From: a virus
IMG/VR virus record: IMGVR_UViG_3300023184_000029
Span: 96,001 to 160,000 of that record
DNA length: 64,000 nt
Reading direction: 5' to 3' (one strand)
Shown: positions 24,580-47,168 of the stretch, in pieces
Numbering within the stretch: the stretch's first letter is position 1
How the letters are laid out: each line of letters begins with the position of its first letter
Translations under genes and position numbers: made by a program
Notes under the pieces: generated by a model
Databases searched by the model: none
What the model saw: the letters and a program-made list of their open reading frames with translations, nothing else
Told to the model about the DNA's origin: nothing

Positions 24580-24591
24580 TTCCGTATATAT

Positions 24592-24598: not shown

Positions 24599-24675
24599 CT
24601 AGTATTAGTCTACAATATGATTGATCAAGACTCTTAAAATTTCTTTAAAAAAATCAATGTCTAGGAGAAATTAAT

Positions 24676-25743: not shown

Positions 25744-25784
25744 TAGTTATTAGATAAGTAGATACATAATATAGGAACAAAAGG

Positions 25785-25928: not shown

Positions 25929-26961
25929 TCAAGATGTGGAGCTTTATCTTAACAGGATTTTTACAGGAATTCTATATTTTTATTTTAAGAATGAACAATA
26001 TGAATTAAGATCGGCTCCTAATCATATCAAATATCAAGGAAGTTTAATATATAATAATATTATCAATGAAGAAAAATACAACGAATGGATAAGAGAAGAA
26101 AATTTAATTCCCGTAATGATAAACCTAGGATTGTGGCAAAAGGATACTGATAAGCTAATAACTAAATTAGAAAAAAAAATAGAAGACTCTAAAGTGGAAC
26201 TATATAAGAATTCAACACAAAAAGATAATCTTAAGAAAATTAGGAAAAATCTGACAGAAACCAGAGAAAGTATGAATAATATTCTATCAAAAAAGAATGA
26301 ATTTATGAATCATACTTTAGAAGGATATGCAATGGCTATAAAGAACGAATATATTATATGTAATACTATATTCAAAAATAATAAAAAAGTTTTTGATAGT
26401 ACTAATAGAAATACTTCATCTTATACAGACTTTAATGATATAGTTAATGAAATAAATCATAATACTATTAATATGGATCAACTTAAATTTTTGGCTCGCA
26501 GTTCTATGTGGAGATCTTACTGGAATGCTAATAAAAATAATGTTTTTAGTACTCAGGTTATAGATTGGACAGATGACCAAAGAAATTTAGTTAATATTAC
26601 AAAAATGTATGATAATATATATGAAAATGAACATTGTCCCCCAGATTCTATTATTAATGACGATGATATGCTTGATGGTTGGATGATTCTGCAAAGAAGA
26701 AAAAGAGAAAAAGAGAAGACTCAGCAAAGCATAGATGAGCTTAATCCTAATCTTAAAAACGCTAATGAGGTTTTCTTATTTGCTAATAATAATGAGTCTT
26801 ATGAAGAAATTACTTCTTTGAATAGCGCTGAAGCTAGTGCTAGACTTAAGGAAAAGATGAATTATATTAAAACAGCGGGAACCGTAGATGATAGCAAACT
26901 CCCAGACGTACAAAGAGAACTATTACAACAACGAAATGATATGCTTAAAAATAGGAAATAA
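25921..26961 (+). CDS. Tail assembly chaperone-like protein
   Basis: Helical protein between tube and TMP genes. Confidence 0.5.
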   Translation: MNDQDVELYLNRIFTGILYFYFKNEQYELRSAPNHIKYQGSLIYNNIINEEKYNEWIREENLIPVMINLGLWQKDTDKLITKLEKKIEDSKVELYKNSTQKDNLKKIRKNLTETRESMNNILSKKNEFMNHTLEGYAMAIKNEYIICNTIFKNNKKVFDSTNRNTSSYTDFNDIVNEINHNTINMDQLKFLARSSMWRSYWNANKNNVFSTQVIDWTDDQRNLVNITKMYDNIYENEHCPPDSIINDDDMLDGWMILQRRKREKEKTQQSIDELNPNLKNANEVFLFANNNESYEEITSLNSAEASARLKEKMNYIKTAGTVDDSKLPDVQRELLQQRNDMLKNRK

Positions 26962-26964
26962 ATT

Positions 26965-27297
26965 ATGAATAATATAGAAAGATTATTATCTAATATTGAG
27001 ACTAGAATTAAAACTACTATGATAGGTTCATTAGCTAGATTTGAAGAATCTTTTGATCACTTATGGGAAGAAGATACTGAAAAAGCTGCTATGTATTATA
27101 ACTTATGGGAACAAACCAGAAATAATATTTTAAATAATGGCAATAATCAATTAAGAGCAGCCATTGATGAATTATCAGATTATCTTTATAATAATGTGAG
27201 GGTTCCTAACAATAAGCCTAAATTTGAAAATAAGTATCATTATAAGTTGTTTTTTAATAATCCGGACCATAAAAATAATAAAGGAGACAGAGAATGA
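26965..27297 (+). CDS. Hypothetical protein (tail chaperone region)
   Basis: 110 aa, coupled to neighbours. Confidence 0.55.
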   Translation: MNNIERLLSNIETRIKTTMIGSLARFEESFDHLWEEDTEKAAMYYNLWEQTRNNILNNGNNQLRAAIDELSDYLYNNVRVPNNKPKFENKYHYKLFFNNPDHKNNKGDRE

Positions 27298-28160
27298 AGA
27301 CTAAGACTTTTAAAGTAGAAGTAGATACCAAGGAAAGAGAGATACTAGTTAAATCTCCGTCTTTAAATGATCAGAGAGAGGCCCAGAAGATATATAATCA
27401 GGCTTTTACCGACGCTATCAAATCAAAGAGCGTTGTACGAGCCAAGCTGGATGATTTGCTACAAGATCAGGGACTATGGAATGATGAAAAACAGGCTAAG
27501 TTTTCTGAACTACAAAGAAAACTACTAGACGGAGAAAAAAGACTAGCAAAGGGAGGCTTTAGTTTAAATGAGGCCAAAGACTTGGCTATTGAGATGAAAG
27601 ATACTAGAGATCAAATTAGAGATCTTATTAGTGTCAAAACTTCTTTGGATAATCATAGTGCTGAAGGACAAGCAGATAATGCTAGATTTAACTACTTAGT
27701 ATCAGCCTGTGTGGTGTATAACGATACTAAAGAGCCAGTTTTTAGTAATATGGAAGATTATCTAAATAGGGGCTCAGAACAAGTAGCAGCACTTGCAGCT
27801 CAGAATTTGGCTAATATGCTTTACGGTTTGGATAATGATTATGAAAGTAATTTGCCTGAAAATAAGTTTCTAAAGAAATATAAATTTATTGATGACAAAT
27901 TAAGAATGATTGATAAAAAAGGAAGACTGATTGATTCAGAAGGAAGACTGGTGGATGAAAATGGTAGATTCATTGATGATCAGGGTAATTTTATTGATAA
28001 GTTTGGTAACAGAGTAGATGCAGACGGAGAATATATTGTTGAGACACAACCGTTTTTAGACGAAAATGGAAAGCCTATTATTGATGAAGACACTAGTGAT
28101 AAACCAGAATCAAATCAATCAGTATCTGAAAATACTTCAGAGGAAAACAAGACTGGCTGA
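27294..28160 (+). CDS. Tail assembly chaperone-like protein with 7-aa D-x-x-G repeats
   Basis: ILVKSPSLNDQREAQKIY; C-terminal DKKGRLI/DSEGRLV/DENGRFI repeats; directly before TMP. Confidence 0.55.
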   Translation: MKTKTFKVEVDTKEREILVKSPSLNDQREAQKIYNQAFTDAIKSKSVVRAKLDDLLQDQGLWNDEKQAKFSELQRKLLDGEKRLAKGGFSLNEAKDLAIEMKDTRDQIRDLISVKTSLDNHSAEGQADNARFNYLVSACVVYNDTKEPVFSNMEDYLNRGSEQVAALAAQNLANMLYGLDNDYESNLPENKFLKKYKFIDDKLRMIDKKGRLIDSEGRLVDENGRFIDDQGNFIDKFGNRVDADGEYIVETQPFLDENGKPIIDEDTSDKPESNQSVSENTSEENKTG

Positions 28161-28195
28161 TAATATTTATTTTTTATTATATCGATTATATACAG

Positions 28196-28235
28196 ATCCC
28201 TGTGCGCTACTATTGTGCATAGGGATTTGTTTTTA
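28196..28235 (+). terminator. Hairpin terminator/attenuator before TMP
   Basis: ATCCCTGTGCGC-TACTATT-GTGCATAGGGAT then TTGTTTTT. Confidence 0.7.
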
Positions 28236-28265
28236 TACATTTAAATTCTAAGAGAAATTTTATAT

Positions 28266-31200
28266 ATGTCATCAGCTTTTAATTTAACCGCACAGCTAAA
28301 TCTTAGAGGACCATCTAATATTGGAAATATAGTTTCTAATATTCGTAGACAGCTTGGTACTATCAATAGCACTGTTAATTTAACAGTTAATCCAAACGCC
28401 GTTACCGGAGTTGGAAGACTTAATGCTTCATTGGTAACATTAAATACCACATTAGCCCAGACACAAACATCAGCAAATGCCGCAGCATCAGCAATTGCTA
28501 ATTTTGCTCAAGCATTTAATACCAATGCTGTAGGTAGAACTACACAACAGCTTAATGCTGCTGTAAATACTACTAATAATTTATCTAGAGCCACTTCTAA
28601 TACTTCTAGACAAATTCAGATGGCTCATTCAGAAATGGCAGAGTTCGGTAGACAATCTTATCTAGCTATTAGAAGATTTGCTGCATTTAGTATAGTAACA
28701 GGAGGTGTTTTTGCATTAACCAATGCTATTAAAGGAGGTATTTCTGCTTATGTAGATTATAATCAAGAACTGGTTAAACTACAACAGGTTACCGGAGGAT
28801 CCGCAGAATCTTTGAAGGGTTTGGAAAAAGAGATTACGGGCTTATCAACAAACTTAGGAGTTTCTTCTGGAGAGTTAACAAAAATTTCGTCTACTTTGGC
28901 TCAGGCAGGATTGAGCGCTAGAGATACTGAAAGAGCACTTAAGGCTTTGGCTTTAAGCTCATTAGCTCCGTCTTTTGATGATATGAATAGAACGGTAGAA
29001 GGTTCTATTGCTTTAATGAGACAGTTTGATATTAGTGCCAAAGATTTAGAGGCTTCATTAGGCTCTATAAATTCTGTTGCAGCAAAATTTGCAGTAGAAT
29101 CTAGTGATATTATTGCTGCTATTCAGCGTACTGGTGGTGTGTTTGCTGCTGCTAGTAGAGGAGTAAGTGAAGGTAAACAGGCTTTAAATGAATTTATTGC
29201 TGTATTTACTAGTGTTCGAGCCACCACTCGTGAAAGTGCAGAAACTATTGCTACTGGCTTAAGAACTATCTTTACTCGTATCCAGAGAGGTAGTACTATT
29301 GAAGCGTTGAAAGAATTCAATGTTAATCTTACTGACGCTCAGGGTAAATTTGTTGGAGCTTACAAAGCTATTGAACTACTATCCAAAGGTTTGAGTAGCA
29401 TAGATCCTAGAGATTTAAAGTTTTCTCAGATCGTTGAGGAGCTTGGTGGTTTTCGTCAGATAGGCAAAGTTATTCCCCTTATTCAGCAATTCGGCACTGC
29501 ACAAGAAGCTTTAGCAGTAGCTCAACAAGGACAAGGTTCTTTGGCTGAGGATTCTATTAAAGCACAATTATCTTTAGCAAATCAAATATCCAAAGTAAGA
29601 GAAGAATTTTTAGCTTTATTTAGAGATATCGGGGGCTCTGATAGTTTTCAGCTTTTAACTAAAGGAGCGCTTGGTCTTGCAAGTGGTCTCATTAAATTAG
29701 CCGATGGTGCTAAGGGTGTGTTGCCGGTATTAGGTATGCTTTTAGCATTTAAGGGAGCACAGGCTGCTACACAATTTGGATTAGGATTCGTAGGAGCTAT
29801 GAGACAAGGCTCTACTGGTAGAAGACGAGCTAGTGGTGGACCCATCAATAGATATGCTGCTGGCGGGCCTGTGGATGTGGATGTTGCATTAATGCCGGGA
29901 GAAACTGTGGTATATCCTGATGCTGTTAGTAGGATTGGAGTATCTAGATTAAGACAATTAAATCATGCGGATAAAAATGGAATAGCGGGTAAAAGAAGAG
30001 GAGGAAGAGTCTCTAAATTTTCTAAAGGAGGATATGCTGAGGTTCCTGGGTCTGGTCGCACAGATAGTTTTTATACTCAATTACCAGAAGGAAGCTTTGT
30101 TATAAGAACAGATGCTACAAGATCTCTTGGAGGACCAGATGGAGTAATGGATGCTGCTAGAAATCATGCATTTGGCGGAGATGTACAAAAATTTGAAAAT
30201 GGTTCGTGGAGAGAGGTGAGAGCACAGGTACGATCTGGCAGAGGGAGACCATCTAAAACTAAGAGTACAGTAGGACAGGCTGTAGAAAAAATAGAATCTA
30301 CAACATACGATAGAAAAGGAAGATTTAAAACGGATTTTCCTTTTATTATCAGAGGATTAAATAGAAAAGGTACGAAGCAAAAAATCAATGAAGAAGCAAT
30401 ATTAAAGGGGTACCTAAACCAAGGAGTAAACGATCTCTCTAAAGCTATTGTTGATAAAACACAAGGAAATATAACTATACCAACCGGTAATATTAATATT
30501 CAAAATAAAGAAAGTATTTATGGAGGATTATTCGAGACAGCTTTATTAAAAATTAGTGGTCGGTCAAAAGATAAAAAAGATAATAATCAAGCTTTTGATT
30601 TTCCAAGAGGTATAGGGTCAGCTTTATCTCCTATTTTTAGTGGTATGCCACCTGATATATCTACTGATGTTAAAAGAACAGCAGCTGCAAATGCTGCTCT
30701 GAAATCCAATATTGCTAATAAAATAGCAAATGATATGGCTTCTAATAGGCTTCCTCAAAAACCAACGCCCGTTGGAGTAGTATCACTATCCCCAATGGAT
30801 TCTGCTATAGTTTCTAAAATTTCAGGAGTAGAAGTAGATAGATTATTGAAAACTAAACTAAAAATAAAAGAACAAAAAAACAAAAAGAAGAGAAATGCTA
30901 AACGTAGAGCTGATAGATACTATGATAATGCTTTAGAAAACGCTATTAACATGATGCCATATGCTATAGGTGGTATTGTTCAAAAGTTTGGGGTTGGAGG
31001 AGAAGCAGAGCCAGTAAGGCGTACTGTTGGAATTATTGATTCTGACTCATGGAAAGGGGACTCTCCAGATATTGCCGCAGCGATGAAAGAGCTTGGCATT
31101 ACTAAGCCCGATGAATATAAAGCTTATATGTCAAACTTAGCAGCTCAAAAAAGACAATCTAATGGAGTACGAAAACTCAGAGTAGCTACCGCAGTAGCAG

Positions 31201-34200
31201 CTGCTGGCAAGACCCGTATTGCTTTTGGTGGAGCTAGAGGTCAAGAAGCAGATAATGCAACATTACGAAAAACAACCAGAACACAAATAAGAGTACCAAG
31301 TGATTTCGACAAATTAGGACCCACCGACGATATTGTTGATACAACTTCAGTAGTTACCCCTAGAAATTTGGGTGCGTTAAGAGCTGCTGACAGAATACGA
31401 GTTATTTCAACAAGATCCAAAGAAAGTCAAGAGAAGGTTGTTGAGAATAGAGACACTAGAGACATTCTTGGAGCATCTGGACAAGTTGATCCAACTGGAA
31501 CTAATTTTGGACAATATGATCGTGAAGCAAAATCTGTTAGTAAAGCACCAAAAAATAGCGGCCCAATGGAAGCGTTATTAGCAGCCACAGAAGTTTCCGG
31601 AATTGATCCTAAAAAAATTGTAACAACAGATTTAGCCACCGGAAAAAGAATCTCACCTCCAAAAGTAAGAACCCCTGATAAGATGGGTGTTATGACCGGT
31701 AATTTTGGTCCTACTACACCAGCCCATGTGGAAATGGCAAAAATAGGGGCTAAACAAGCAGGAATCAAACGTGAAAATGTAGTCGCTATGGTTGCTAACG
31801 ATGTGCCTATAGATCCATTTAATAGAGATCCAGAAGCAGAAAGAACAGCGTATCTTCCACAAAAATCTAAAACAGGACCTTCTAGATACGGAATGGCCCA
31901 AGCTGTTTTTGGAGCTGAAGGCTTTTCTGTTCATGCTATGGAGAGAGGATCGTCTCCAAATTCTATGCCCTATGCTTTTCAAACTGGAGAAGATACAGAT
32001 ACATATATAGTTCCTAGTGATAAAACTAAAAAATTTGAAATCGGAGGAAGTGATAAGCCAGAAACATCAAGATATCCTGGATACGATCCCATAAGAGTTT
32101 CAAGAACTTCTGGACCAACAGCAGGAATAAGTGCTACTCTTGCTAGAGAAGCTATTAATAGTGGAAATATTAGTGAGATACAAAAATATCTTACGCCAGC
32201 AGGGCTCAAATATATTGAACCACATCTATCTCTTCTGAGAGAAAGACCAAAACTATTAGACAGTATTCTCGATAGACTTCAAAAAGGCAAAGGTGCTACT
32301 GCGAGTAAATATTTAGCTACTCTTGAAGAATTAAAAACACTACCAGCAAGAAAAACTAAAACTACACCACCTGAAGTAGTAGCGAAGATGGAAGCTAAGA
32401 GAGAAGAAAGAGAGAGATACAAAAAAAAACTATTCGGATTACCATCCAGAATGTTACGCAGATTAGAATCTAGACAGGCAAGAGCTATCGGTGGATTAGT
32501 TCAAAAATTTGGAAGAGGCACGGACAAACCCATAAAGTCTTTTAATGAGATGGGCAAATCAGAGCTATTGAAACAAGCGGAAAAATTAGGGGTTTTTGTT
32601 CCTATAGATTTTCGTAGACTATTAGATTCAAGAGCTATTGGATCTGAAGAAATTAGAGCTAAAGTTATAAAAGAATTAGAAGATCAAAGAACCATCATAA
32701 AGGCTGCACAAGAAAAAACTTCAACCAGAGCTAAGAAAAGAAAAATAGGTGTTGTAGGATTAACAGGAGAAAGTTCGTCTACTGAACTCACCACCCCTGG
32801 TTTAAAAAGCAAAAAAGGTGGGCGCGGTTTAACAGGCGTTCCGGCAACTTTAGAAACAGGGTCGTTACCATCCGATTTATCAAAACAAGTACAAGCTATT
32901 ATTCGTAATCAAAGCGAAAGAATAGCAGCAAGAGTAGGAAGATTGATAGCGACTAGAGCAGGATCGTCTCCTGTTACAGATAAAAAACAAATTAGAGCTA
33001 TTGTTAGCAAACAATTGGATAATATCTCGGGGTTATTATTTGAGAGTGGGTTAGCAGTTGCAGGAGCACCATATGACCCAACAGAAAAAACCGGTCCAGA
33101 TTTTAGTAGAGGTTTGGGTAAAAAATTAGGAGCTTTATTTGGTGTTGATCCTAAAGCAATGACAGACGCTACTAATCAAGCTGTAAAAGACGTGGCTAAA
33201 GCCAAAGTAACTAAAGGAACTTTTGATAGAGGTCGCAGAAACGCTATCAGAACAAAAAGATTAGCTAGAAATTTTGGAGGCATGATTCAAACATTTGAAA
33301 TAGGCGGACAGCCTTCTCTTAGCAGATCTTCTAAAGATAAACGATTTGATCCTAAAAAATTAGCAGCTTTTCTAGGAGCACAAACTCCAACTAGCAATAA
33401 AGCAAAAGACTTAGCAGAACGATTAAAAGATTCTAGTTCATCAGCTATTAGTAAGCCTAATTATGAAGAATTATTAAAGGGATTAAAAGGATATGCTAAA
33501 GGAGGAGAAATACCAATAGTAGCCCAAGAGGGTGAATATGTTATAAATAGAACATCGGCTAATCAGATAGGACGCCACAATCTAGATAAACTAAATATTG
33601 GAGGCAGGGTAGGACTAGATAACTTGCCAAAGTATCATACCGGAGGCATAGTTAGATATAATAAAGGGGGATCCGTACAGAAATTAGCTGTTGGCGGAGA
33701 GATAGATAATGCATTATCTGGAATGTCTAATAAAGACACTATTAGATTAAGAGCTAGTATACAAAAAAACTCTCAAGCTTTTGAACAATTAGCTAAATTA
33801 GTTTCTGGCTGGAAAGTTGAAGATGTTGGAATGGCGATGAAAAGATTAGATCGCTCTTTAGAAAAAGGTGTGTCTCAAGCAGATGCTTTAGCACAAAGCG
33901 TGGTTGCTGGTACTACTAGTGCTGCTAGACAACCATCCAAAGCTAGAGGTCCAAATATTTTAGGAGGAACACCAGATACTAGAAATGCCGGGACGGTTGG
34001 TAGAACAGGAGATTTTAAACAAATAACGGGACTAAGTAACAGTAAAGGCCAGCCGCTTAAAGTCAATGGGCCCGGTGATGTTCAAGCTACTTTAGATAGG
34101 ATAGCCCCAAAAATTACTGCTAGATTTAATAGATTAGGCTTTACTACTGAAGCTACAGAAAAAGCACTTCTAGTTTTTAATACACAGGTTAGACAAACCG

Positions 34201-37200
34201 GGGATGCAAACCAAGCATTTAGAGCCGCTGTTCAGAGCGGCAAGGATTCTATGACTATGGTAGGTCGGACGGGAGTTGGTGCTACCGTTTCTGGTATGAC
34301 AAGAGAGAAAGGATCGACCACTCCTGAGCAAAGACTAGCCAGGAAAAAGCAGAATAGAGCGGATGATAGATTCGGTATGTTTCAAGGAGCCACCATAGGT
34401 GGGTGGGCTGGTTTTGCGGCTGGTGGAGCTATCGGTGGATTAGCTGGGGCTCCGCTAGGAGGAGTTATTGGAGCTGTTGGAGGAGCCGTAGCAGGCTCTG
34501 AAAGAGGCAACCGTATAAGATCTATGCAGTACGAAGCAGGAGCAGACAAGCTTAAAGCCAGAGCTAGTAATATGGCTCAAGGAGGATCTTCAGGATCAGC
34601 GACATTAGCATTACTTAATAAGGCTATGAGTCCATTAGTATATAAAGCAGCCCAAGTTAGTAGTGGTATGTCAAAATTGCATTTAGGAGCCGCACAATTA
34701 TCTTCTTCTTTAAATAAAGGAGCATCAGCAGTAGTTTCGTGGGGTTCTGGTATTAAAAATTCTCAGGGGCCTATGGATGGTTTTAAGAAAACTGTAGGAG
34801 GAGTCGGTTCTTTACTTAAAAATTCTTTCTCCTCATTAGCCAAAGGAGCAGATGCCGCTGTTGGTAAATTAATGGGATTAAAGAAAGTAGATATTGGAGG
34901 GGGTAAACAAGGATGGAGAAGTGCTGCTGCTACTATGGGAGCAGATGGTGTTACCAGAGATGCTAGTGGTAGAAGAGCCAGGGGTTTTGGTGGAGGGGGA
35001 GGAGGAGGAAGAGGGGGTAGAGGAGGAGGAGGAGGTATGGGAGGTGGTATGGGTATGTATGGACTAAGCATGGGAATACCTATGGCCGCTCAAATGTTTG
35101 GTACTCAAGAAGCCCAAACAGAGACTCAAGCTTCTAATAATGCTTTTGTTGAACAATCTTCAAACGCTGTTGGAGGAGCTTTAGCAATGGCTACTATGGG
35201 AGGACCAATAGGAATTATTGCAGGATTAGGAACCGCTGCGGCTGGTATAGCAACAGCCTTTGTAACCGCTGAGAATGCTGTTAATGAGTTTGGAAAAAAT
35301 AAAGCAGCAAAACAAATGGAACAGAGTAGTGAAAAAATATCTAATATTTTAACAGAAATTAGCAACGCAGGCGCTGCAACACCAGCTGCCCTTGAGCAAC
35401 TTAAAACGGCTCTAGATTCTAGCACCTCAGCCGCTTTAACATTTGCCGAAAAGAGCGGAACCAAAAAAGGTAGTTTTGTACAAGATATAGTTGGAAATAG
35501 TAATTTGGGAGCATTACTAGGATCATTAGAAGGAGCTACAGATAATAATGATGCTCAAGGAGCTATTAATAGATCTCAAATTCTAGACAAAAAAGGCATA
35601 TTTGCCTATTTGGCATCTGCTGGAGATAAAGATACAGAACTATCGAATATTCGTGATCTTATTCCTGATATGGCAAACGATATATCTAAAAGCTTTGCTA
35701 TACCAGCTGATAATATTAAGAAAGCTTTTGAACAAAGAACTCGTTCTGGAGAATCGTCAGCGAGTATAACGTCATCACCAGAATTTGCTAAACAAGCAGA
35801 GATTTTAGCAAGATCAAATCCAGAAGCAGAAAAACAATTACAACTTATACAAGCAGACACAAGATTAAGTGAACAGGACAAAAGAGCCAGAAGAGAAAAT
35901 ATCATAGCTGCATATGGAAATGCTGCTGCCATGAAAGCTATTAAAACAACTGAGACTCAAATGGCAATAGAAGCTCTTGGTAAATCAGCTAGAAACTTTA
36001 GTTTTAGTTTAAAAAGAATGTTCAATAATATGGATATTGCTATAGCAGCATCGTCTAATTCATTACAATCTTTATCAGAAAAACTAGAATTAAGTGCCGC
36101 TTCTGCCGGTGGCAATGCCAAAGTTGGTAAATCTAGTGAAATACAGAGTATGATAGACGTATTAAAAAATCCAAGAGGTTATTCTGACACTCAAAGATCT
36201 ACTGCTATGAAGGGAGCCTCATCAGTATTTGGACCACAATCTGGTAATATGGAAAAAATGTTAAATTTGGGAGCAAATATTGAAGACACTTTAATGTCCA
36301 CTATTAATAGTACATTACAAGCAAATAGCGGAGCTAATAATGAAGAAGTTGGAGCCAAAGTAGAATCTGCTGTTAAAGATAAATTAAAGAGTTTGAACTT
36401 TCCACCAGATCTGGCCAATAAATTAACAGGACAAGTACAAGCCGCTGTTAGTAAGATGAGAACTAGAGGAGACGAGAAGCTTGACTTTTCTAAGCTAATG
36501 GAGGAAATAGGACCACTAGCTAATAGTATAGAGAGTCTTAAAGGAGCCTCAGATTCAGCAATCAGGGCCTTAGAATTTATAAAGAATTCTTTTGATCAAC
36601 TATCTGACGCTACTAATCAGATAACAGATATACAAGTACAAAACAATAGTAGGCTTAGAAATGCTCAAAATATTTTAGTAACAGGCACAAGAAATTTAGA
36701 TAGAGCATTAGGCAAAGACATAAAATTATCTGATACTAAAACAGATTTCAATAATCAAACAAGAAGTTTCACCGGCGGAGCCACTGACCCTTCTGCTATT
36801 AGAAGAAATATTCAAAATCTAGAAACACAAAGAAATCAACAACAAACAGGACTAGATCAGGCTAAAGCTTCTACTGATATGGGAGGAGTTCTAGCTTTCA
36901 GTGATGGTTTGGTAAAAACTAATAGCGCTATTAGAGAGAACGTCGCAGCATTAGAGCAACTAGCACAGAATGGAGATTTAGCATCTGCTGCATTAGATCA
37001 AGTTAGTAAAATACAAGCAAAGCAAGCAGCTGGAGTATCTATTGTTGAAAGATTGGTGACTAGCACTCCTGGTGAACTTAATAATCTTAATCAAGCATTT
37101 AATAGACTCACCAATAATATGCAAGGAAAAGCTAATTTTGGCACTAGTGCTGATCAGAGAAAAGAATCATTAGATGTTCTTAATATGATTATGCCATTTT

Positions 37201-40200
37201 TAGGAGATAAACAAGGAGGAGTTAAAGCTAATATTTTACAATCTCAATTACAAGAATCTGGTATACAAAGCAATCCTTTTATTGATCAAGTACTAGGCTC
37301 TTTAAGAAATCCAGAAGCTGATCCTGAGATGAAAGCTGCTACAGATACTTATCGAGAAGCAATTACAACACAATCAGAGGCTAATATTCAGTTGGCTAAA
37401 ATTAATACTGATTTGGCCGGGAATATCGCAAGGAGTACGGCAGACGCTGTAGCTGCTGCTATAAAAAATACTCCTCTTAATTTTAGTCAGATGCAAACTT
37501 CTGATGAACAAAAGGGTATAAATAAAGTACCAACAATGGCTACGGGAGGAGTAGTATATAAATCAGTTGGGGGGAATATTTTTCAACCAAAAGGAACAGA
37601 TACTGTACCAGCAATGTTGACTCCTGGAGAATTTGTTGTTAATAGGAGTGCTACTCAAAGAAATCTGCCATTACTGAAGAGTATCAATAGCTATAGTTCA
37701 GGAGGAGCTGTCAAATATTATGCTTCTGGAGGCATGGTTGATGTTAGAGATTCTGGGTCTGGGGCTTCAGCCGGAAAAAGTATCCTATCCGAATCAGCGA
37801 CTGCTACTGATGACGTACGACTAACCAAAGAAGAATATCCTGTTTTATCAGAGAATTTAGTTAAAAATATTCTAACCAAAACAGATGAGGTTTCTCGTTT
37901 ATACGGTACTCCAGCAACTGTTTATGGATCATATAATACTGACCAAGATTTTACAGGACCTATTATTGCTAAATTAGACAAAGAAGCATTTAAAGCCAAA
38001 ACTGATGGTCTGGGCATTAATGAGATTAGAAGATATCTAAAGACTTTTAATACCTCTTTTGATCTAACACCGGACAATTGGGAGTTAGGAGCATCTAATC
38101 CTATTGGTATCGGTATTGATAGAGAAGAAAAAAAAGGATACCTTTGGGGAACCGTTATGGAGGGAAGTAATCTGCCAACATTTGAAAAATATAATACTAC
38201 AGGCGTTGGTATGAGCAGAGAAGAAGAATTAGCTAATATTTTATTACCTTATCAGGCAATACAGACTAATGCATTAGAAACTCATAGTAAAAAGTATAGA
38301 ATAAGTAATAATACCACAGGGGGTAAAGATTTTAAAAACTATAAGATTGAGGATCCAGATAGCTCATTTCTATCTAAACAAACACAGCTTGATCTATTGA
38401 ATACTTTAGTAACTAAATTGGCCGGCTCTACGATAAATAATGACGATACACTTGGTAAAAAAATACTTTCAGCAGAAGACAAATACACAGGGGATAGAGA
38501 ATATAAAAACGGCAATAAACAGTCTCTGGACAAAATACTAGAAAGATCACTATTTATTACAACCAAACCAGTAAAAGATAAATATTATAATGCACAATGG
38601 ACAAACGCCAAGCCTCAAGGATTAGTTACCGGTAATGGTAATGCTTTAACAACTGTTCAAAAAACTACCTCTTTCATGGGAACGAATCTAAAAGGTAGAA
38701 AACAATTAGGAGCAGCTAATACAGACGTTTTGCGCCCTGGTGTTCTTGAGAACACAGCAAAAGGTACTGATGTTGAGAGTAAACAAAAATATATAAAGGA
38801 AAGATTAAAATATTTCGAAGAGTTAAAAAATCAATATGAAAATATTAATAATTTTACTATTATTAATAGCAGTAAAGCTTCTAATAATAAAATGAATACT
38901 TTATTAGAATCATTGTACGATGATAATTTGAGCGGTCTCTTTGTTTCTATTCCTAAAAATCAATTATCATCAAGCTGGGGAGATTACGGGAAAATTACTG
39001 ATTTTGCTTATATATATAGAAAACAATTTAATGATAAATGGAATAGAATTGTTAATTCTTATAAAGATAATAAAGATCATGTATTTTCTAGCGATAGTAA
39101 TAAACTAAACATAGTTAAGGATAGTACTGCGCAGTCTTTTAATTGGAGTAATAAGCCAATAGATCTTGATCGTATCAAAGATATTGTATCTGATATAGAA
39201 GAAAAAAACAAGAAAAGAGAAAGTCTTTTTCAATTGGATGAAGCAGCAACATCTCATGCTTTCGAAGTAGCTATAGGATCAGAAAAATATGAAGGCAAAT
39301 TTAATACTCAAAAAATAAAGATACCCAAGTTAACAGAAGAAAAAGGATATATTCCACCAACAGATGAATTTCTAGATGGATTCTTATTATCCTCATCCAA
39401 AGAAGCTCCTCTACTAAATCCATTTTTAGAGGCTAAACAGCAACTATTTACATCACAAGACCCCGCATTAATAGCACAGTTATTATCAGGATCCTATAAT
39501 ACAAAAGAACCTTTAAAATTAGATAATATAGACTTAGTAAGACTTCTTACACAAGAAGAAGGAATACAGGGAGGTATAGATGCATTAGATATAGATAAAG
39601 CATATACGTTAATTCCCGATCCCAAACCAGAGATTTTCTTATTCCAGCAATTAGAAGATGCCAAAAATAGAATGATGGAACAGAGAGGAGAAACAACACT
39701 CCAGCCTTCTGCTAAACTTGCTACCAGTGTGGATAGAAAAGGAAAAAAAGCAAAAGCTTCATGGCTTAGAAAATCTTATCTTGATTATGCCAATGAAGCA
39801 ATTAAAAATATTATTCTACCATCTATAGGAGTATTCAAAAAATTTATTCCTAATTTTGGTTTAACTAAACTTGATAGTTCTAATCAATTTAAATCATACT
39901 CAGAAGGTTTAAATAAACTACAAACAGAATTTGGAAAAAGAATAACCAATAATAAAGGAGATTTTCTTAATGATCAGCTAGGATCAGCTTGGGGAAATGT
40001 TGGGGCAGTATCGAAATTTATTGGAGCCCTATCCCTATCAGATCCTTCCAAAGAACTAGGATCTATATTAGGGGCTGGAGAATTTGATTTAGAAAAAGTG
40101 AAAAATGTCACACCACTTTTTGAAAAAATTAAATCCTATGGTCAAATACTAAAAGGTGCCGGAAAAAGTAAAATAGCTGCAGAAATGATTTTAGCAGAGA

Positions 40201-41375
40201 CTAATGAGAAAGGGGTGGCTACGGATAAGAAAATTCCAGAAGCAGAACAGCAAGCAGTAGATAGGGCTATTAGAGATACTGTTGGCACTGGTGAAACAGC
40301 CACCGTTGATAATAAAACCGGCATTATAACATATAAAAAATTAACAGATAAAGATACTCCTAAAAGCATAAGAGAGCTAGGAGCACTATCTCTAAATCCC
40401 TATAGCTTTTTCCCCGCACAAGCTAGACAAAGTCTTATAGATCAATTATTATCATTTTTCCCTGCCGATAATAAAAATAAAAATTTAGATAAAGTCAAAA
40501 CTGATATAACTGCACTTAAAACTTGGTATCGCTCTCAAGATTCATATTTATCATCAAAAGATCCTACAGCAGATGATAGTAAATATCTTGATGATAATTA
40601 TAATACGGCTAATACAAGCTTACAAAATTTAACCGCTGGATTTTTTGGACTCTTACCAAGTCGTATTAAATTAGACGAGATGAAAAAAGCTAAAGAGAGC
40701 AGGGATCAAAAGGCGCCAGAATTTCAGAAACCACAGACCAGAGCTAATGGTGGTCTTATTTATGCTAGTAATGGAACACTTGTAAACTTTGCTCCTCGTG
40801 GTACTGATACCGTTCCTGCTATGTTAACCCCTGGAGAGTTTGTTGTTAATAGACGAGCTACTCAGAATAATCTTCCATTATTAAAAAGTATTAATAGTGG
40901 TAATTATAGTACAGGAGGAGTAGTTGTTCAGCCGAAGTACTTTGATAGAGGAGGACTAAACATAGGGAATGCTGTATCTGCTGGTATATCTAGCCTACTA
41001 GGATTAGATTCTGTTTCTTCTACAATCCTAGGCTCTTTTAGTAAGAGTTTTAGTCGAAATGTAAAATCATTATCAACTATTAAATTTGATTTTGGACAAA
41101 AGGTAATGGGGGACTTTGTTTCTAGCTTAAATTCATTAACTAAACAATTATCTTCTATAGATATTCCTCCCACTATTAATATTAGTGCTACTCATGAAGT
41201 AAATATTAATCTTAAAGAAGGAGCTAGTATATTACAAAGTATTGAGCAGACTATAGCGTCTAGCGTAGTAGCAGAAGTTGGTAAACAGATAGACGAATTA
41301 AGAAAAGTGATAACAAAAAATAACGACGGGGCCTTGGAGTTAGGAAGTCCTTCCAAACCAGCAGGCAAACCATAA
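28266..41375 (+). CDS. Tape measure protein (4369 aa) with embedded enzyme-like cargo domains
   Basis: N-terminal TP901-type TMP repeat region (ELVKLQQVTG...LAQAGL...AAKFAVESSDI...GLRTIFTR), Ala/Gly-rich helices, position after chaperones. Confidence 0.9.
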   Translation: MSSAFNLTAQLNLRGPSNIGNIVSNIRRQLGTINSTVNLTVNPNAVTGVGRLNASLVTLNTTLAQTQTSANAAASAIANFAQAFNTNAVGRTTQQLNAAVNTTNNLSRATSNTSRQIQMAHSEMAEFGRQSYLAIRRFAAFSIVTGGVFALTNAIKGGISAYVDYNQELVKLQQVTGGSAESLKGLEKEITGLSTNLGVSSGELTKISSTLAQAGLSARDTERALKALALSSLAPSFDDMNRTVEGSIALMRQFDISAKDLEASLGSINSVAAKFAVESSDIIAAIQRTGGVFAAASRGVSEGKQALNEFIAVFTSVRATTRESAETIATGLRTIFTRIQRGSTIEALKEFNVNLTDAQGKFVGAYKAIELLSKGLSSIDPRDLKFSQIVEELGGFRQIGKVIPLIQQFGTAQEALAVAQQGQGSLAEDSIKAQLSLANQISKVREEFLALFRDIGGSDSFQLLTKGALGLASGLIKLADGAKGVLPVLGMLLAFKGAQAATQFGLGFVGAMRQGSTGRRRASGGPINRYAAGGPVDVDVALMPGETVVYPDAVSRIGVSRLRQLNHADKNGIAGKRRGGRVSKFSKGGYAEVPGSGRTDSFYTQLPEGSFVIRTDATRSLGGPDGVMDAARNHAFGGDVQKFENGSWREVRAQVRSGRGRPSKTKSTVGQAVEKIESTTYDRKGRFKTDFPFIIRGLNRKGTKQKINEEAILKGYLNQGVNDLSKAIVDKTQGNITIPTGNINIQNKESIYGGLFETALLKISGRSKDKKDNNQAFDFPRGIGSALSPIFSGMPPDISTDVKRTAAANAALKSNIANKIANDMASNRLPQKPTPVGVVSLSPMDSAIVSKISGVEVDRLLKTKLKIKEQKNKKKRNAKRRADRYYDNALENAINMMPYAIGGIVQKFGVGGEAEPVRRTVGIIDSDSWKGDSPDIAAAMKELGITKPDEYKAYMSNLAAQKRQSNGVRKLRVATAVAAAGKTRIAFGGARGQEADNATLRKTTRTQIRVPSDFDKLGPTDDIVDTTSVVTPRNLGALRAADRIRVISTRSKESQEKVVENRDTRDILGASGQVDPTGTNFGQYDREAKSVSKAPKNSGPMEALLAATEVSGIDPKKIVTTDLATGKRISPPKVRTPDKMGVMTGNFGPTTPAHVEMAKIGAKQAGIKRENVVAMVANDVPIDPFNRDPEAERTAYLPQKSKTGPSRYGMAQAVFGAEGFSVHAMERGSSPNSMPYAFQTGEDTDTYIVPSDKTKKFEIGGSDKPETSRYPGYDPIRVSRTSGPTAGISATLAREAINSGNISEIQKYLTPAGLKYIEPHLSLLRERPKLLDSILDRLQKGKGATASKYLATLEELKTLPARKTKTTPPEVVAKMEAKREERERYKKKLFGLPSRMLRRLESRQARAIGGLVQKFGRGTDKPIKSFNEMGKSELLKQAEKLGVFVPIDFRRLLDSRAIGSEEIRAKVIKELEDQRTIIKAAQEKTSTRAKKRKIGVVGLTGESSSTELTTPGLKSKKGGRGLTGVPATLETGSLPSDLSKQVQAIIRNQSERIAARVGRLIATRAGSSPVTDKKQIRAIVSKQLDNISGLLFESGLAVAGAPYDPTEKTGPDFSRGLGKKLGALFGVDPKAMTDATNQAVKDVAKAKVTKGTFDRGRRNAIRTKRLARNFGGMIQTFEIGGQPSLSRSSKDKRFDPKKLAAFLGAQTPTSNKAKDLAERLKDSSSSAISKPNYEELLKGLKGYAKGGEIPIVAQEGEYVINRTSANQIGRHNLDKLNIGGRVGLDNLPKYHTGGIVRYNKGGSVQKLAVGGEIDNALSGMSNKDTIRLRASIQKNSQAFEQLAKLVSGWKVEDVGMAMKRLDRSLEKGVSQADALAQSVVAGTTSAARQPSKARGPNILGGTPDTRNAGTVGRTGDFKQITGLSNSKGQPLKVNGPGDVQATLDRIAPKITARFNRLGFTTEATEKALLVFNTQVRQTGDANQAFRAAVQSGKDSMTMVGRTGVGATVSGMTREKGSTTPEQRLARKKQNRADDRFGMFQGATIGGWAGFAAGGAIGGLAGAPLGGVIGAVGGAVAGSERGNRIRSMQYEAGADKLKARASNMAQGGSSGSATLALLNKAMSPLVYKAAQVSSGMSKLHLGAAQLSSSLNKGASAVVSWGSGIKNSQGPMDGFKKTVGGVGSLLKNSFSSLAKGADAAVGKLMGLKKVDIGGGKQGWRSAAATMGADGVTRDASGRRARGFGGGGGGGRGGRGGGGGMGGGMGMYGLSMGIPMAAQMFGTQEAQTETQASNNAFVEQSSNAVGGALAMATMGGPIGIIAGLGTAAAGIATAFVTAENAVNEFGKNKAAKQMEQSSEKISNILTEISNAGAATPAALEQLKTALDSSTSAALTFAEKSGTKKGSFVQDIVGNSNLGALLGSLEGATDNNDAQGAINRSQILDKKGIFAYLASAGDKDTELSNIRDLIPDMANDISKSFAIPADNIKKAFEQRTRSGESSASITSSPEFAKQAEILARSNPEAEKQLQLIQADTRLSEQDKRARRENIIAAYGNAAAMKAIKTTETQMAIEALGKSARNFSFSLKRMFNNMDIAIAASSNSLQSLSEKLELSAASAGGNAKVGKSSEIQSMIDVLKNPRGYSDTQRSTAMKGASSVFGPQSGNMEKMLNLGANIEDTLMSTINSTLQANSGANNEEVGAKVESAVKDKLKSLNFPPDLANKLTGQVQAAVSKMRTRGDEKLDFSKLMEEIGPLANSIESLKGASDSAIRALEFIKNSFDQLSDATNQITDIQVQNNSRLRNAQNILVTGTRNLDRALGKDIKLSDTKTDFNNQTRSFTGGATDPSAIRRNIQNLETQRNQQQTGLDQAKASTDMGGVLAFSDGLVKTNSAIRENVAALEQLAQNGDLASAALDQVSKIQAKQAAGVSIVERLVTSTPGELNNLNQAFNRLTNNMQGKANFGTSADQRKESLDVLNMIMPFLGDKQGGVKANILQSQLQESGIQSNPFIDQVLGSLRNPEADPEMKAATDTYREAITTQSEANIQLAKINTDLAGNIARSTADAVAAAIKNTPLNFSQMQTSDEQKGINKVPTMATGGVVYKSVGGNIFQPKGTDTVPAMLTPGEFVVNRSATQRNLPLLKSINSYSSGGAVKYYASGGMVDVRDSGSGASAGKSILSESATATDDVRLTKEEYPVLSENLVKNILTKTDEVSRLYGTPATVYGSYNTDQDFTGPIIAKLDKEAFKAKTDGLGINEIRRYLKTFNTSFDLTPDNWELGASNPIGIGIDREEKKGYLWGTVMEGSNLPTFEKYNTTGVGMSREEELANILLPYQAIQTNALETHSKKYRISNNTTGGKDFKNYKIEDPDSSFLSKQTQLDLLNTLVTKLAGSTINNDDTLGKKILSAEDKYTGDREYKNGNKQSLDKILERSLFITTKPVKDKYYNAQWTNAKPQGLVTGNGNALTTVQKTTSFMGTNLKGRKQLGAANTDVLRPGVLENTAKGTDVESKQKYIKERLKYFEELKNQYENINNFTIINSSKASNNKMNTLLESLYDDNLSGLFVSIPKNQLSSSWGDYGKITDFAYIYRKQFNDKWNRIVNSYKDNKDHVFSSDSNKLNIVKDSTAQSFNWSNKPIDLDRIKDIVSDIEEKNKKRESLFQLDEAATSHAFEVAIGSEKYEGKFNTQKIKIPKLTEEKGYIPPTDEFLDGFLLSSSKEAPLLNPFLEAKQQLFTSQDPALIAQLLSGSYNTKEPLKLDNIDLVRLLTQEEGIQGGIDALDIDKAYTLIPDPKPEIFLFQQLEDAKNRMMEQRGETTLQPSAKLATSVDRKGKKAKASWLRKSYLDYANEAIKNIILPSIGVFKKFIPNFGLTKLDSSNQFKSYSEGLNKLQTEFGKRITNNKGDFLNDQLGSAWGNVGAVSKFIGALSLSDPSKELGSILGAGEFDLEKVKNVTPLFEKIKSYGQILKGAGKSKIAAEMILAETNEKGVATDKKIPEAEQQAVDRAIRDTVGTGETATVDNKTGIITYKKLTDKDTPKSIRELGALSLNPYSFFPAQARQSLIDQLLSFFPADNKNKNLDKVKTDITALKTWYRSQDSYLSSKDPTADDSKYLDDNYNTANTSLQNLTAGFFGLLPSRIKLDEMKKAKESRDQKAPEFQKPQTRANGGLIYASNGTLVNFAPRGTDTVPAMLTPGEFVVNRRATQNNLPLLKSINSGNYSTGGVVVQPKYFDRGGLNIGNAVSAGISSLLGLDSVSSTILGSFSKSFSRNVKSLSTIKFDFGQKVMGDFVSSLNSLTKQLSSIDIPPTINISATHEVNINLKEGASILQSIEQTIASSVVAEVGKQIDELRKVITKNNDGALELGSPSKPAGKP

Positions 41376-41432
41376 ACCTATATTTGGCCAGTAAATCAAT
41401 ATGACACAATCAATCCAAACTAAATTTTTAAA

Positions 41433-41439
41433 GGTGTAT
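41433..41439 (+). promoter_or_regulatory. Putative late promoter GGTGTAT
   Basis: Intergenic, 30 nt before 41469. Confidence 0.55.
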
Positions 41440-41468
41440 AAACTTACATATTCTTTCAAGGAAAACCC

Positions 41469-44400
41469 ATGATTAATTCACCAATATATATATTTGATAA
41501 TATCGGTTCATATTTTTCTTATCAAAATGATAAGTTTTTAATAGGCTCTTCCCTTCCTGGTTATAAGTCTTTAAATATTGACCATATTAATGCTCATATC
41601 CCATATCTGGTTCGTAACGTTAATAATAGCAAAGTATTGTGGGAGATTGGTATAGGCAAGGTTGTTGTAGTAAATTCTTCTATATGTGTTGAAAGAGTAC
41701 AGGTTGTAAAATCTTCTAATAATGATCAACTTGTTGATTTTTCAGCTGGCGGAACCAAAAGTTTCTACATATTCGCAAACGAATATAATTTTAATACGGG
41801 TTTTAATAATGTAATATTAAAAAATAATAATTTCATTGCTGATTCTGTTCGATGTGTTTATATTGTAGATACTAGTGACAATGCTTCAGAAGCCTCATTA
41901 CCAGATCCTTCAAAGTGTGCTGGATTAGAACTTAAATTCAAAACAGTTGGTTCTGGATCTAATGACTTAATCATTAAAAAATCTAATAATGAAATTCTTA
42001 CAACATTAACAGGTAGCGATAAATTTACACAAGTTATTTCTACTGGCACAGATTGGGTAGAACTTAAAGACCAAATAGACGCACCAAACATAAAAGCTAT
42101 GGGACTTTCAGACGGGTCATACACAATATCCAGTGTAGAAGGAGCAGGAGACGACCGCTCATTACAATTTAATAATGATGGAACCATAGATGGTACAGAT
42201 GTATATTGGTCCAGTAACGGACAACTACTATTTGGATCATCATCGTCATCATCTGCACACTCTATTATACCATCATCTGGCAATTCCCCAACAATAATAA
42301 ATAATGATGGTACAAATTCTAACTTTTTAGTTAAGGGCTCAGGACTTAATAATAGTTTATTTTTCACATATGATGGTAAACTTGGTCTTAATATTCCTTC
42401 TGGCGCCACACCTCAAACGGTTCTGCATCTAATTAATAATAATTGTAAAGAGGGTATAAGATTAGAAAATAGAAGTTCTTGCTATCCTGCTAATATAACT
42501 CTATATCATAAACCAGCATCTTCTATCGACGCCAACTCGGTTGTTTCATCACTTTCTCTTGCTGCTAAAAATAATTTGGGAAATAAAGTAGAATATGGAA
42601 AATTACAATCTAAAGCCCTGGTTTTAACAGAAGGTTCTACGAAAGGACAAATTGAATTATTAGTGGATAGCTCAGGATCCGGAGTTTCTGTATTACAAGC
42701 AAATCCTAATGCCGTAACTGTTGGATATACTAGTGGCAATGCTCTAGTAATTAATAATCAAGGAGCTAGTGTTTTAGGATACTCTAATAATAATATTACC
42801 GTAACTAATAATGCTATCAATATTAATACTAATAATATTAGCATGACCGGAATTTTCAATGCTACTAAAATTAATATAGGTTCAGGCTCTATCTCTACAC
42901 TTTCATTACCAAATATTTCTCCTAATAAATTATTGATGGTAAATTCTTCAGGAGTTTTGACCACAAATGATTCTTCTTTTAGTATAGCGTCTATTCCTTC
43001 TGGTAGAATATTAACAACAAGCGCTAGCGGAGTAATAGTTGGTTCATTAACTCCGGAACAGTTTTTTATTACTGAAAAATCACTATCATGGAATCAGTAT
43101 CCCGCAAGAACAGCAAATGTCTGTTTGAAACAAATAGCCCCCATAGACCCTATTCCTGTAAAAGAATTTGCTATAGGAGATCAAGTTGCTATAGAAACAG
43201 ATACTGATGTTTTTTATAGAATAGTAAAAGATATCGAAATAGAAAATAATAATATTATTTCAATTTTAGTAGATAGCAATATCACAGTAAATACTGTAGC
43301 AAATGTTAAGGTATATTCTATAACTCAGGGCGGGTATCTTAAAAATACCAGATATGTTAAAAGCGGCAATGTTTCAGATTCAACAGCAAATATTCTGAGC
43401 ATCAGACCCCAAACAGATACGGTATTTAATAATCTGCATAAAGATATTAATTTTCTAGTTTATGGAATAGATAATATTCCAGCTCTAGAGGTATTTGCAA
43501 ATATTAATCAGTCATCATCTTCTAAGGGAGTATATACATCCTATAATCCTAGCACCACAGGAGTATTAAGGATTGTTGGGGATGATATTACAAAAAGTTA
43601 TTATGGAACATATGATCAGGGAGATAATGTTTCTGAATGGATAGAGAATGATAAAATATACTCTACTGATAATATAGAATATGTAGCTGGTGGTTCTTGG
43701 AATTCCACTAATGCTAATGAGTATAAGAGTATCAGAGCCTTCCCAAATAATACAGAAAATAATAAGATAGGATTTAGAGTTCGTAATAATCTAGACGCTG
43801 CTGGTAGCGCATATATATCCAATTTACTAGATCTTAAATTTGTATCAGTAGACGATATGAATAATCCTGAGGATACATCAGGACTATATGATTATACATC
43901 CTCTCCCGAACTATTAACTATTCCTAATCTTGGCTCTGTTCCTTATAGTTTCGGCATGACCGAATCAGAAATAACTAATAATCAATATTGTAAATTTTTA
44001 AATTCTGTTGCTTTGTCTGGGGATCCATACTCTTTATATAACTCCAATATGGCTTCGTCTGGTTTATTAGGAGGTATAGCAAGATCTGGCTCTGGCCCAT
44101 ATAGCTACTCTACAGTATCAGGAATGGTATACAAGCCGGTTGTATATGTAGATTATTTGTCTGCTCTAAGATTTATCAATTGGATAGACCAAGGCGCTCC
44201 GTCCGGATCCTCATATGATCCAGATTTATTAAATGACGGGGCATATACTATATCTGTTGAGGACTCATCCGTTCAAAAGAAAAGATTTCAAAAATATGGA
44301 CTTCCATCTTTGAATGAATGGTATAAGTCTGCTTATTATCAGCCTGTTGAAACTATTCCTTCAGTAGGCCACTCTGCAGTAACAGTTAAAAGAAACCTAC

Positions 44401-47167: not shown

Positions 47168-47168
47168 T

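Follow-up and report, generated by a model that had tools for sequence, protein, structure and literature searches.

A giant phage tape measure protein with recombining segments bounded by a lambda gpH-like joint peptide

How a single phage structural gene comes to encode more than four thousand residues, and what the glycine-glycine (GG) motifs that punctuate its product are for, are the questions raised by a 64,000-nucleotide stretch of viral DNA, here called the window, which comprises bases 96001-160000 of an IMG/VR record (IMGVR_UViG_3300023184_000029; 186,542 bp, rated complete by CheckV). The gene is one open reading frame (ORF; window 28266-41375, plus strand) that runs for 13 kb without a stop codon and encodes the 4,369-residue protein P0001. 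An earlier reading of this DNA, hereafter the original prediction, had proposed a tape measure protein (TMP) built as a GG-punctuated cargo polyprotein. The explanation we favour, and hold to be likely, is a fixed chassis with two bays of exchangeable cassettes that are bounded by a joint peptide and carried in the tail.

P0001 matches the PhageMin_Tail family (PF10145; residues 188-393, 80.5 bits against a cut-off of 33.2, E 2e-22) and the tail length tape measure family phrog_28 (E 6e-30), the PF10145 and PHROG tape measure matches spanning residues 51-506. Its gene is placed after the terminase, portal and head genes, and a search of the 186.5-kb record for a sheath family found none. Because of these family matches, the gene order and the lack of a sheath family, we regard P0001 as the TMP of an uncultured 187-kb phage that probably has a non-contractile tail. 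Comparison of the gene and its cassettes with 50,697 phage records (megablast and tblastn) gave no match beyond ~25% identity in the N-terminal domain, and SPbeta-type TMPs are distant relatives of that domain.

Joint peptides and their ancestry

All 12 motif clusters of the original prediction are present in the translation where it had placed them (residues 522, 577, 635, 900, 1407, 1669, 1743, 1791/1799, 3092, 3144, 4160 and 4215). The strict pattern GG.[VIL]..[FY]..G occurs seven times in P0001, against a mean of 0.036 and a maximum of 1 in 2,000 shuffles, and the basic unit [FYLH][ANSTGK].GG.[VILM] occurs 11 times, against 0.56 in shuffles (maximum 5). The single paired motif that had been described is therefore real, but it comprises two elements that had not been separated: a hairpin, in which the unit [FY]-A-x-G-G-x-[VI] is doubled, and a PGE box of the form ..VPAMLTPGEFVVNR.AT...LPLLKSIN, found at residues ~540, ~605, ~1755, ~3118 and ~4187. 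In a full joint (residues 3091-3160 and 4156-4232) the PGE box (VPAMLTPGEFVVNR.AT..NLPLLKSIN) is flanked by two units, and diverged variants of this arrangement lie at residues 521-650 and 1743-1815. The joints are listed below by window position.

29826-30215, plus strand: joint cluster 1 (residues 521-650), made up of hairpin, PGE box, hairpin, PGE-like box and hairpin; kept in most relatives
30963-31001, plus strand: hairpin joint YAIGGIVQKFGVGG (residues 900-912); left swap breakpoint relative to the sister phage L101
32484-32522, plus strand: hairpin joint RAIGGLVQKFGRG (residues 1407-1419); alignment ends of relatives accumulate here
33270-33710, plus strand: joint cluster 2 (residues 1669-1815), made up of a hairpin (right swap breakpoint), YAKGG with a PGE-like box, and two hairpins
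37536-37745, plus strand: full joint 3 (residues 3091-3160), made up of hairpin, PGEFV box and hairpin; 61% identical to joint 4
40731-40961, plus strand: full joint 4 (residues 4156-4232); more than 500 related stretches in IMG/VR

Across the family the hairpin has the consensus [YF][AN]xGGx[VI][QR][KR][FY]AxGGxV, with 429 strict copies in 120 relatives, and the number of units grows with protein length (r = 0.74 for 163 TMPs). Among direct DNA repeats of at least 18 nt within the gene none covers the hairpins, and the sole repeat is the pair of PGEFV boxes of joints 3 and 4, a 98-nt repeat of 80% identity in which the differences are mostly at third positions and largely synonymous. Since the hairpins have no DNA repeat and the PGEFV differences are largely synonymous, the joints are kept by selection on the peptide and not on the DNA. 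A DNA-level recombination site at the joints was rejected on the same grounds, the hairpins having no repeat and the PGEFV pair being only 80% identical. Also rejected was an assignment of the PGE box to LysM, to which its G-[DE]-x-h...A...G...L...N spacing corresponds; 41 module-bearing sequences gave no LysM match in Pfam at E values up to 10.

A comparable module occurs in the TMP of phage lambda, gpH, which at residues ~731-785 reads FATGGFTG...PAGIVHRGEFVFTKEATSRIGVGNLYRL..YATGGYVG (in full, FHFATGGFTGTGGKYEPAGIVHRGEFVFTKEATSRIGVGNLYRLMRGYATGGYVG). The module order, namely an [FY]AxGG unit, a hydrophobic-x-GE[FY]V box with the helix that follows it and a second [FY]AxGG unit, is found in P0001 at residues 3091-3160 and 4156-4232. 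Joint cluster 1 matches the C-terminal region of gpH in pairwise BLASTP (E 9e-5); hhalign of the joint module against gpH gave a weak match (E 0.0055, probability 6.7%), and no Pfam model spans the module, PF09718 stopping at gpH ~701. Searches by tblastn with the full joint reached annotated TMPs in 211 phage records, among them those of phages of Gordonia, Mycobacterium, Nodularia, Ralstonia and Synechococcus, and in the TMP of mycobacteriophage Cheetobro the module lies directly N-terminal to an embedded NlpC/P60-like domain. On sequence grounds, the P0001 joint appears to be derived from an element that occurs once near the gpH C-terminus. The two proteins also share an N-terminal TMP region, a Gly-rich hydrophobic stretch, the order of unit, GEFV box and unit, and a C-terminal tail that binds the tip, in P0001 presumably. 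They differ in that gpH has one module and no inserts in 853 residues, whereas P0001 has 4-5 full modules, at least five isolated hairpins (with more inside clusters) and ~2,400 residues of inserts.

In lambda, gpH is cut in a Gly-rich region near its C-terminus to give gpH* and gpHC (about residues 690-853), and the module FATGG...RGEFVFTKEATSRIGVGNLYRL...YATGG adjoins this region on its 3' side (PMC12617516). Because gpHC comprises residues ~690-853 and the module ~731-785, the lambda module lies just inside gpHC, beside the unmapped cut. This arrangement bears on the possibility that P0001 is a true polyprotein in which the joints are protease sites, with the TMP cut at most of them during tail maturation or after ejection and the cassette proteins thereby freed, a reading that we consider doubtful. 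It draws on the homology of the joint to the gpH region beside the Gly-rich stretch of the gpH*/gpHC cut (PMC12617516), on a joint sequence that is specific and conserved, unlike a loose linker, and on hairpin residues that are low-confidence or unstructured in both AlphaFold2 (AF2) models made, those of cassette B and of the last 240 residues, as for an accessible site. Set against these points, the exact cut site and the protease are not established even in lambda, and cleavage is known only for the TMPs of lambda and T5 (PMC12617516); the C39 (PF03412) and S78 (PF04586) proteases are absent from the 186.5-kb record, other proteases not having been searched for; no relative has its gene split at a joint, the two short matches examined (P0132 and P0122) being contig-end fragments; and cuts at all joints would separate the parts of the chassis as well. 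For cleavage at one or more joints, we put the chance at roughly one in three. In the AF2 model of the last 240 residues, too weak to support a fold search and built with 41 sequences (predicted local distance difference test score, pLDDT, 64.7; predicted template modelling score, pTM, 0.22), the full joint is mostly coil with one helix as a monomer, a prediction compatible either with a site that is flexible and accessible or with folding that takes place only in the oligomer.

Chassis, insertion bays and exchange

A search of 5.8 billion proteins returned 178 relatives of 2,400-7,600 residues on contigs of up to 250 kb, and a second search returned relatives down to 1,958 residues on contigs of up to 160 kb. 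The sets used here are 119 relatives mapped on P0001, 163 proteins segmented at joints and more than 160 full-length relatives. Coverage of P0001 by the 119 mapped relatives is near complete at residues 1-640, ~2450-3160 and 4150-4300, and low and patchy (1-50 relatives) at residues 650-2250 and 3160-4000. The conserved parts are as follows.

28266-29825, plus strand: chassis part 1, the N-terminal TMP domain (residues 1-520); in 112-117 of 119 relatives at ~50-65% identity
34386-35255, plus strand: chassis part 2, a Gly-rich hydrophobic, membrane-like segment (residues 2041-2330); 24% Gly
35256-37535, plus strand: chassis part 3, an Ala/Gln/Ser-rich, presumed helical ruler (residues 2331-3090); covered by up to 85-117 of 119 relatives
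40962-41372, plus strand: chassis part 4, the C-terminal tail (residues 4233-4369); kept in 67-112 relatives

Read from these alignments, P0001 comprises a fixed chassis of ~1,970 residues in total (1-650, 2041-3160 and 4156-4369) and two bays with exchangeable cassettes (651-2040 and 3161-4155) that together hold ~2,400 residues of inserts. The chassis is the size of the shortest relatives, and those of 1,958-2,381 residues keep the N-terminal domain and a few joints and have few inserts; of nine short relatives compared, alignments reach the helical region in six and the C-terminal tail in three. The joint peptide is present at cassette boundaries in the first bay and at both ends of cassette D, the occupant of the second. 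In the TMP of the related contig L004 (P0018), five nearly identical full joints (GGVVYAS.GKLINFQPKGTDTVPAMLTPGEFVVNR.ATQANLPLL.SINSG) lie within 1,650 residues (2310-3960), and the C-terminal bay is therefore able to hold several short cassettes.

Within the chassis, the Gly-rich segment has hydrophobic runs at residues 2058-2077 and 2301-2335 and a poly-Gly DNA repeat at 34989-35042. The ruler contains no joint in 760 residues, is found in relatives of ~2,000 residues and from residue ~2450 is conserved in most relatives. The C-terminal tail is modelled by AF2 as helices (pLDDT up to 93) and, by analogy with lambda gpHC (PMC12617516), may bind the tail tip. The earlier expectation of unrelated globular domains between successive motif clusters thus holds for cassette B, which is predicted to be folded, and fails for residues 2041-3090, which are the Gly-rich segment and the ruler.

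The segments between motifs had been proposed to be interchangeable, with the motifs as recombination joints, and alignment of related TMPs bears this out: inter-motif segments are swapped, reordered, inserted and deleted. Of the internal ends of high-scoring segment pairs, 53% lie no more than 20 residues from a joint, where circular shifts of the joints give 11% (p ~0.0015), and cutting the 163 proteins at their joints yields 307 segment families, 211 of them singletons. Cassette B starts anywhere from residue 592 to residue 1756, depending on the relative, and in most relatives its alignments begin at query residue 899-906. Cassette A' stands 3' of B in P0001 and 5' of it in P0006 and P0007.

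The clearest exchange is seen against the sister phage L101, which carries the TMP P0002. At the DNA level L101 matches window 20468-31007 with 97.5% identity and 33495-49103 with 96.8%, whereas over window 31008-33317 DNA similarity is essentially zero and the proteins are 30-55% identical. The left breakpoint lies inside the hairpin at residues 902-912 (nt ~30993-31007), with identity through GGIVQKFG followed by divergence, and the right one just past the hairpin at residues 1671-1683 (NFGGMIQTFEIGGQPS), L101 DNA identity restarting at nt 33318. At window nt ~33484, exactly at LKG|YA(K/V)GG, L101 has an insertion of 81 residues that is absent from the window; this mini-insert (L101:13174-13457) is bounded by YAVGG and KKAKGG and is an example of insertion at a single basic unit. 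Taken together, the enrichment of alignment ends and the cassette replacement with breakpoints at two hairpins indicate, at the level of sequence comparison, that joints are places at which cassettes of related phages were exchanged, reordered, inserted or lost. Presumably the recombinants that stay functional are those joined there.

As the record is a metagenome assembly, the giant ORF could in principle be an assembly chimera or several neighbouring genes fused together. We give this almost no credence, given 13 kb without a stop codon, the recurrence of this architecture in more than 160 assemblies made independently from several sources, and a sister contig, L101, that is collinear at 97% identity.

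Chassis and cassettes share a marked compositional constraint. The 163 giant TMPs contain 35 Cys in 789,518 residues, and 147 of the 163, P0001 included, contain none; in the other ORFs of the window Cys makes up 1.0%. Because Cys is nearly absent from the cassettes too, they share the constraint and so are adapted to life inside a TMP. We infer that the chain is stored and moved unfolded, possibly through an oxidising compartment. A near-total absence of Cys over ~790,000 residues is a simple, checkable sign of constraint on these TMPs.

Several roles are conceivable for the joint peptide: a site of cleavage, an element that acts as hinge or sets the register, or a place where a chaperone docks. 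A reading in which the joints stay uncut and structural is plausible, if somewhat short of an even bet: as hinge or register elements, or as docking sites for tail assembly chaperones, they would keep parallel TMP chains aligned and extended across the non-helical inserts, and recombinants would survive only when joined there. Consistent with this are the selection on the peptide rather than the DNA, the restriction of joints to domain boundaries with none in the 760-residue ruler, the module that flanks an embedded hydrolase in a mycobacteriophage TMP, and the position of the module in the unresolved N-terminal part of lambda gpHC (PMC12617516). The predicted coil and single helix of the monomeric full joint are also compatible with folding only in an oligomer or on a partner.

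Cassette contents and neighbouring genes

The two bays of P0001 contain five segments.

30216-30962, plus strand: cassette A (residues 651-899); in only 8 of 119 relatives, a weak paralogue of A' (E 6e-5)
31002-32483, plus strand: cassette B (residues 913-1406); predicted P-loop domain and HIGH-family nucleotidyltransferase with a helical extension
32523-33269, plus strand: cassette A' (residues 1420-1668); in ~20 relatives, position varies
33711-34385, plus strand: segment C (residues 1816-2040), variable; in 1-9 relatives
37746-40730, plus strand: cassette D (residues 3161-4155), aromatic-rich (Phe, Trp and Tyr 8.6%); last ~150 residues more widespread

Cassette B consists of a P-loop domain (residues ~917-1132, Walker A at ~977-983) and a nucleotidyltransferase part (residues ~1137-1408) with the motifs GNFGPTTPAH (nt 31698-31727) and GISATLAR. 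The original prediction had called for AlphaFold and Foldseek on the inter-motif segments; this gave a confident, enzyme-like fold for cassette B, and the profile of cassette A' found no match in the PDB. The AF2 model of cassette B (residues 902-1408, from a 13-sequence alignment) has a pLDDT of 82.9 and a pTM of 0.79. Its top 40 Foldseek matches in the PDB are all NadM, NadD or NMNAT (E 7e-5), and VIA-align of the nucleotidyltransferase half gives NadD 4rpi at Z 14.8 (root-mean-square deviation 2.9 over 156 residues), PPAT at Z 13.2 and TmcAL at Z 10.6. By profile against the PDB, the matches are MJ0951 (2.5e-5) and Plasmodium PfNaMNAT (1e-3), and PF16581 is found in 11 of 13 cassette B relatives (best E 1.4e-5); the viral structure matches are cytidylyltransferase-like proteins. 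As to subfamily, the fold matches favour NadD/NMNAT and the sequence matches favour the MJ0951/TmcAL-type C-terminal region.

The P-loop domain has only weak matches to AAA-type families in Pfam, and its best fold match, the zeta toxin 6epg, is modest (Z 7.7). Across the 13 sequences there is little or no variation in the Walker A, HIGH-like and ISxTxxR columns, although the relatives are 31-50% identical: K81 of Walker A and G244, P248, G386, S388 and R393 are invariant, and G80 of Walker A, G252 and H253 are conserved in at least 90%. The model and alignment argue for a folded P-loop and HIGH-nucleotidyltransferase unit, enzyme-like and with intact nucleotide-binding motifs. The activity pair of NadR is a kinase and an adenylyltransferase. 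Because of the likeness to this pair, NAD+ salvage is one possible role of cassette B, by analogy.

Among 1.84 billion representatives, cassette B has 79 matches, every complete-length one of which is a giant TMP; no free-standing complete cassette B protein is among them, and the shorter matches look like contig-end fragments. The one pattern run against GTDB species genomes found none, nor did a single-sequence scan of IMG/VR. In other relatives, the ADP-ribosyltransferase (ART) family PF03496 lies above threshold between GG-type motifs (P0026 and P0111), or there are EF-hands or a match to sigma-70 region 3. Cassette D is covered by 6-22 relatives up to residue ~4000 and by 44-69 thereafter, and has no Pfam match.

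These contents bear on whether P0001 is a ruler and nothing else. The TMPs of Thermus phages P23-45 and P74-26 have ~5,000 residues, and their tails measure ~0.8 micrometres. It is nevertheless improbable, in our judgement, that P0001 serves only to set a very long tail (~0.65 micrometres at 0.15 nm per residue), with the inserts as spacers and the enzyme-like fold as a relic. Tail length is set by TMP length in the siphophages studied, and embedded motifs count towards length in TM4 (PMC1796659); yet cassette B keeps its nucleotide-binding motifs unchanged among relatives of 31-50% identity, its fold is predicted with high confidence, ART domains in relatives exceed the Pfam threshold, and 307 distinct segment families would be needless for spacers.

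Directly 5' of the TMP gene is a pair of genes in the position of tail assembly chaperones.

26965-28160, plus strand: two overlapping genes encoding 110 and 288 residues

Family searches with both products gave no match, and they may be tail assembly chaperones by position alone; a gene pair of ~100 and ~290 residues stands 5' of the TMP gene in L002, L003, L004 and L101. The order of genes for ~347, ~100 and ~290 residues, the TMP and a ~1,730-residue fn3/FGE-sulfatase protein is kept in L002, L003 and L101, and L004 has only the genes 5' of the TMP in common with it. In the window, the last of these (41469-46655, directly 3' of the TMP gene) encodes 1,728 residues with fn3; its orthologues have fn3 repeats and a weak FGE-sulfatase match, its residues 1503-1597 match minor and major tail PHROGs, and it is probably a component of the distal tail or of a fibre.

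Further upstream, a 442-residue protein (13391-14719) has a head-decoration/fibre-type match to phrog_2647 (E 1.4e-53), and its first 50 residues match 'hyaluronidase' and tail-fibre families. A 546-residue protein (15823-17463) with repeats of ~26 residues, FNxCxxLxxVPLFNTxxxTxMxxMF, resembles in translation a BspA-like leucine-rich repeat protein. Two glycine-rich paralogues of 291 and 322 residues (18427-20284), each ending ..RFSS.., coincide with a jump in G+C to 0.45-0.53 from a background of 0.33, and the small ORFs ahead of them, at 17711 and 19316, both begin MPFSFPSSPT. The L101 orthologue of a 335-residue protein (21256-22263) has a weak match to the proprotein-convertase P-domain (PF01483), with no protease domain seen.

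Proposed delivery and relation to known systems

In the favoured explanation, a fixed chassis with bays of cassettes, the whole chain including the cassettes would be stored extended in the tail lumen and, in the manner of TMPs, would exit before the DNA, and the cassettes would refold after exit and act in the host envelope or cytoplasm. Several points weigh against this explanation. Several copies of a folded 55-kDa domain are too large for a lumen of ~4 nm, so that storage in an unfolded state has to be assumed; and no cultured relatives, from which tail length and virion protein sizes could be taken, were found among the 50,697 phage records. In cassette B, the HIGH motif of the window reads TPAH where relatives have xxGH, Ala replacing the Gly before His, and PF01467 scores 12.9 bits in the window, below the gathering score of 21, and is weak in 6 of 13 relatives. 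No fold or family could be recognised for cassettes A, A', C and D in the searches described above, and the claim of enzyme cargo is therefore one of a single P0001 cassette together with the ART domains of two relatives. Sub-block boundaries within cassette D have no joint, and the joints are thus not the sole exchange points.

A more far-reaching proposal, which we regard as rather unlikely, extends to an uncultured family with genomes of 60-250 kb, many from lake metagenomes. Their TMPs would deliver Cys-free cassettes unfolded, injected before the DNA and freed by cleavage at lambda-type joints, as ready-made effectors of host takeover or anti-defence (one example would be to restore NAD+ where immunity depletes it), and the joints would double as exchange points by which the phages re-arm. 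The cassettes considered in this proposal are the P-loop and NMNAT-like nucleotidyltransferase, the ADP-ribosyltransferases and hundreds of further families.

Enzyme domains inside a TMP are familiar from those with an embedded cell-wall hydrolase, as in P0001 in that respect: TM4 motif 3 (PMC1796659), Cheetobro, T5 pb2 and SPbeta YomI. Such TMPs have one or two wall hydrolases each, whereas in the P0001 family the predicted chemistry is of a cytoplasmic type (the P-loop and nucleotidyltransferase, and ART in relatives) and cassettes are numerous and have been shuffled. Polyvalent proteins (Iyer et al. 2017, PMC5512222) are similar in being giant, virion-associated strings of unrelated enzyme domains, ART included; host entry with the DNA has been proposed for them and autoproteolytic release discussed (PMC5512222). 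They differ in being head-packaged and in having neither a TMP chassis nor a common joint peptide, and the word 'tape' occurs 0 times in PMC5512222. Their hallmark domains (MuF, MPTase and DarB-type helicase/methylase) gave no Pfam match in P0001 at E < 0.1 for the whole protein or E < 5 for segments. Of the multiple catalytic domains typical of polyvalent proteins, P0001 has one two-domain enzyme-like cassette, and ART and EF-hand domains occur among its relatives.

Effectors of actinobacterial contractile injection systems (Sle1; PMC13277306) also have a TMP-derived scaffold with exchangeable domains and are packaged in the tube and ejected. Compared by description, these belong to a bacterial injection particle and not a phage, and carry one C-terminal functional domain (PMC13277306). 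Embedded hydrolases in TMPs, polyvalent proteins and the TMP-like modular effectors of contractile injection systems are the nearest published concepts. In polymorphic toxins (CdiA with VENN, Rhs with PxxxxDPxGL), a short conserved peptide marks where variable domains recombine. The parallel is an analogy only, since these toxins have one variable C-terminal domain, a different context and a motif other than the GG joint. The original prediction had named it the best candidate for an undescribed system. The motif is a lambda-gpH-type C-terminal element that is also present in mycobacteriophage TMPs; for a TMP architecture with shuffled, joint-bounded cassettes no published description was found in the literature searched.

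Proteins that enter before phage gene expression are the earliest possible counter to host immunity. The pre-made entering proteins known to us, namely T4 Alt, P1 Dar and the N4 virion RNA polymerase, are head-packaged. If the proposed delivery is true, a route through the tail lumen, with one standard joint and exchangeable cassettes numbering in the hundreds, would constitute a second, modular delivery system, and would explain TMP sizes of 4,000-7,500 residues. It would also provide a testable function for the C-terminal element of lambda gpH, and perhaps for the unmapped cleavage of gpH, and the joint would be a natural place at which to insert engineered cargo into phage tails.

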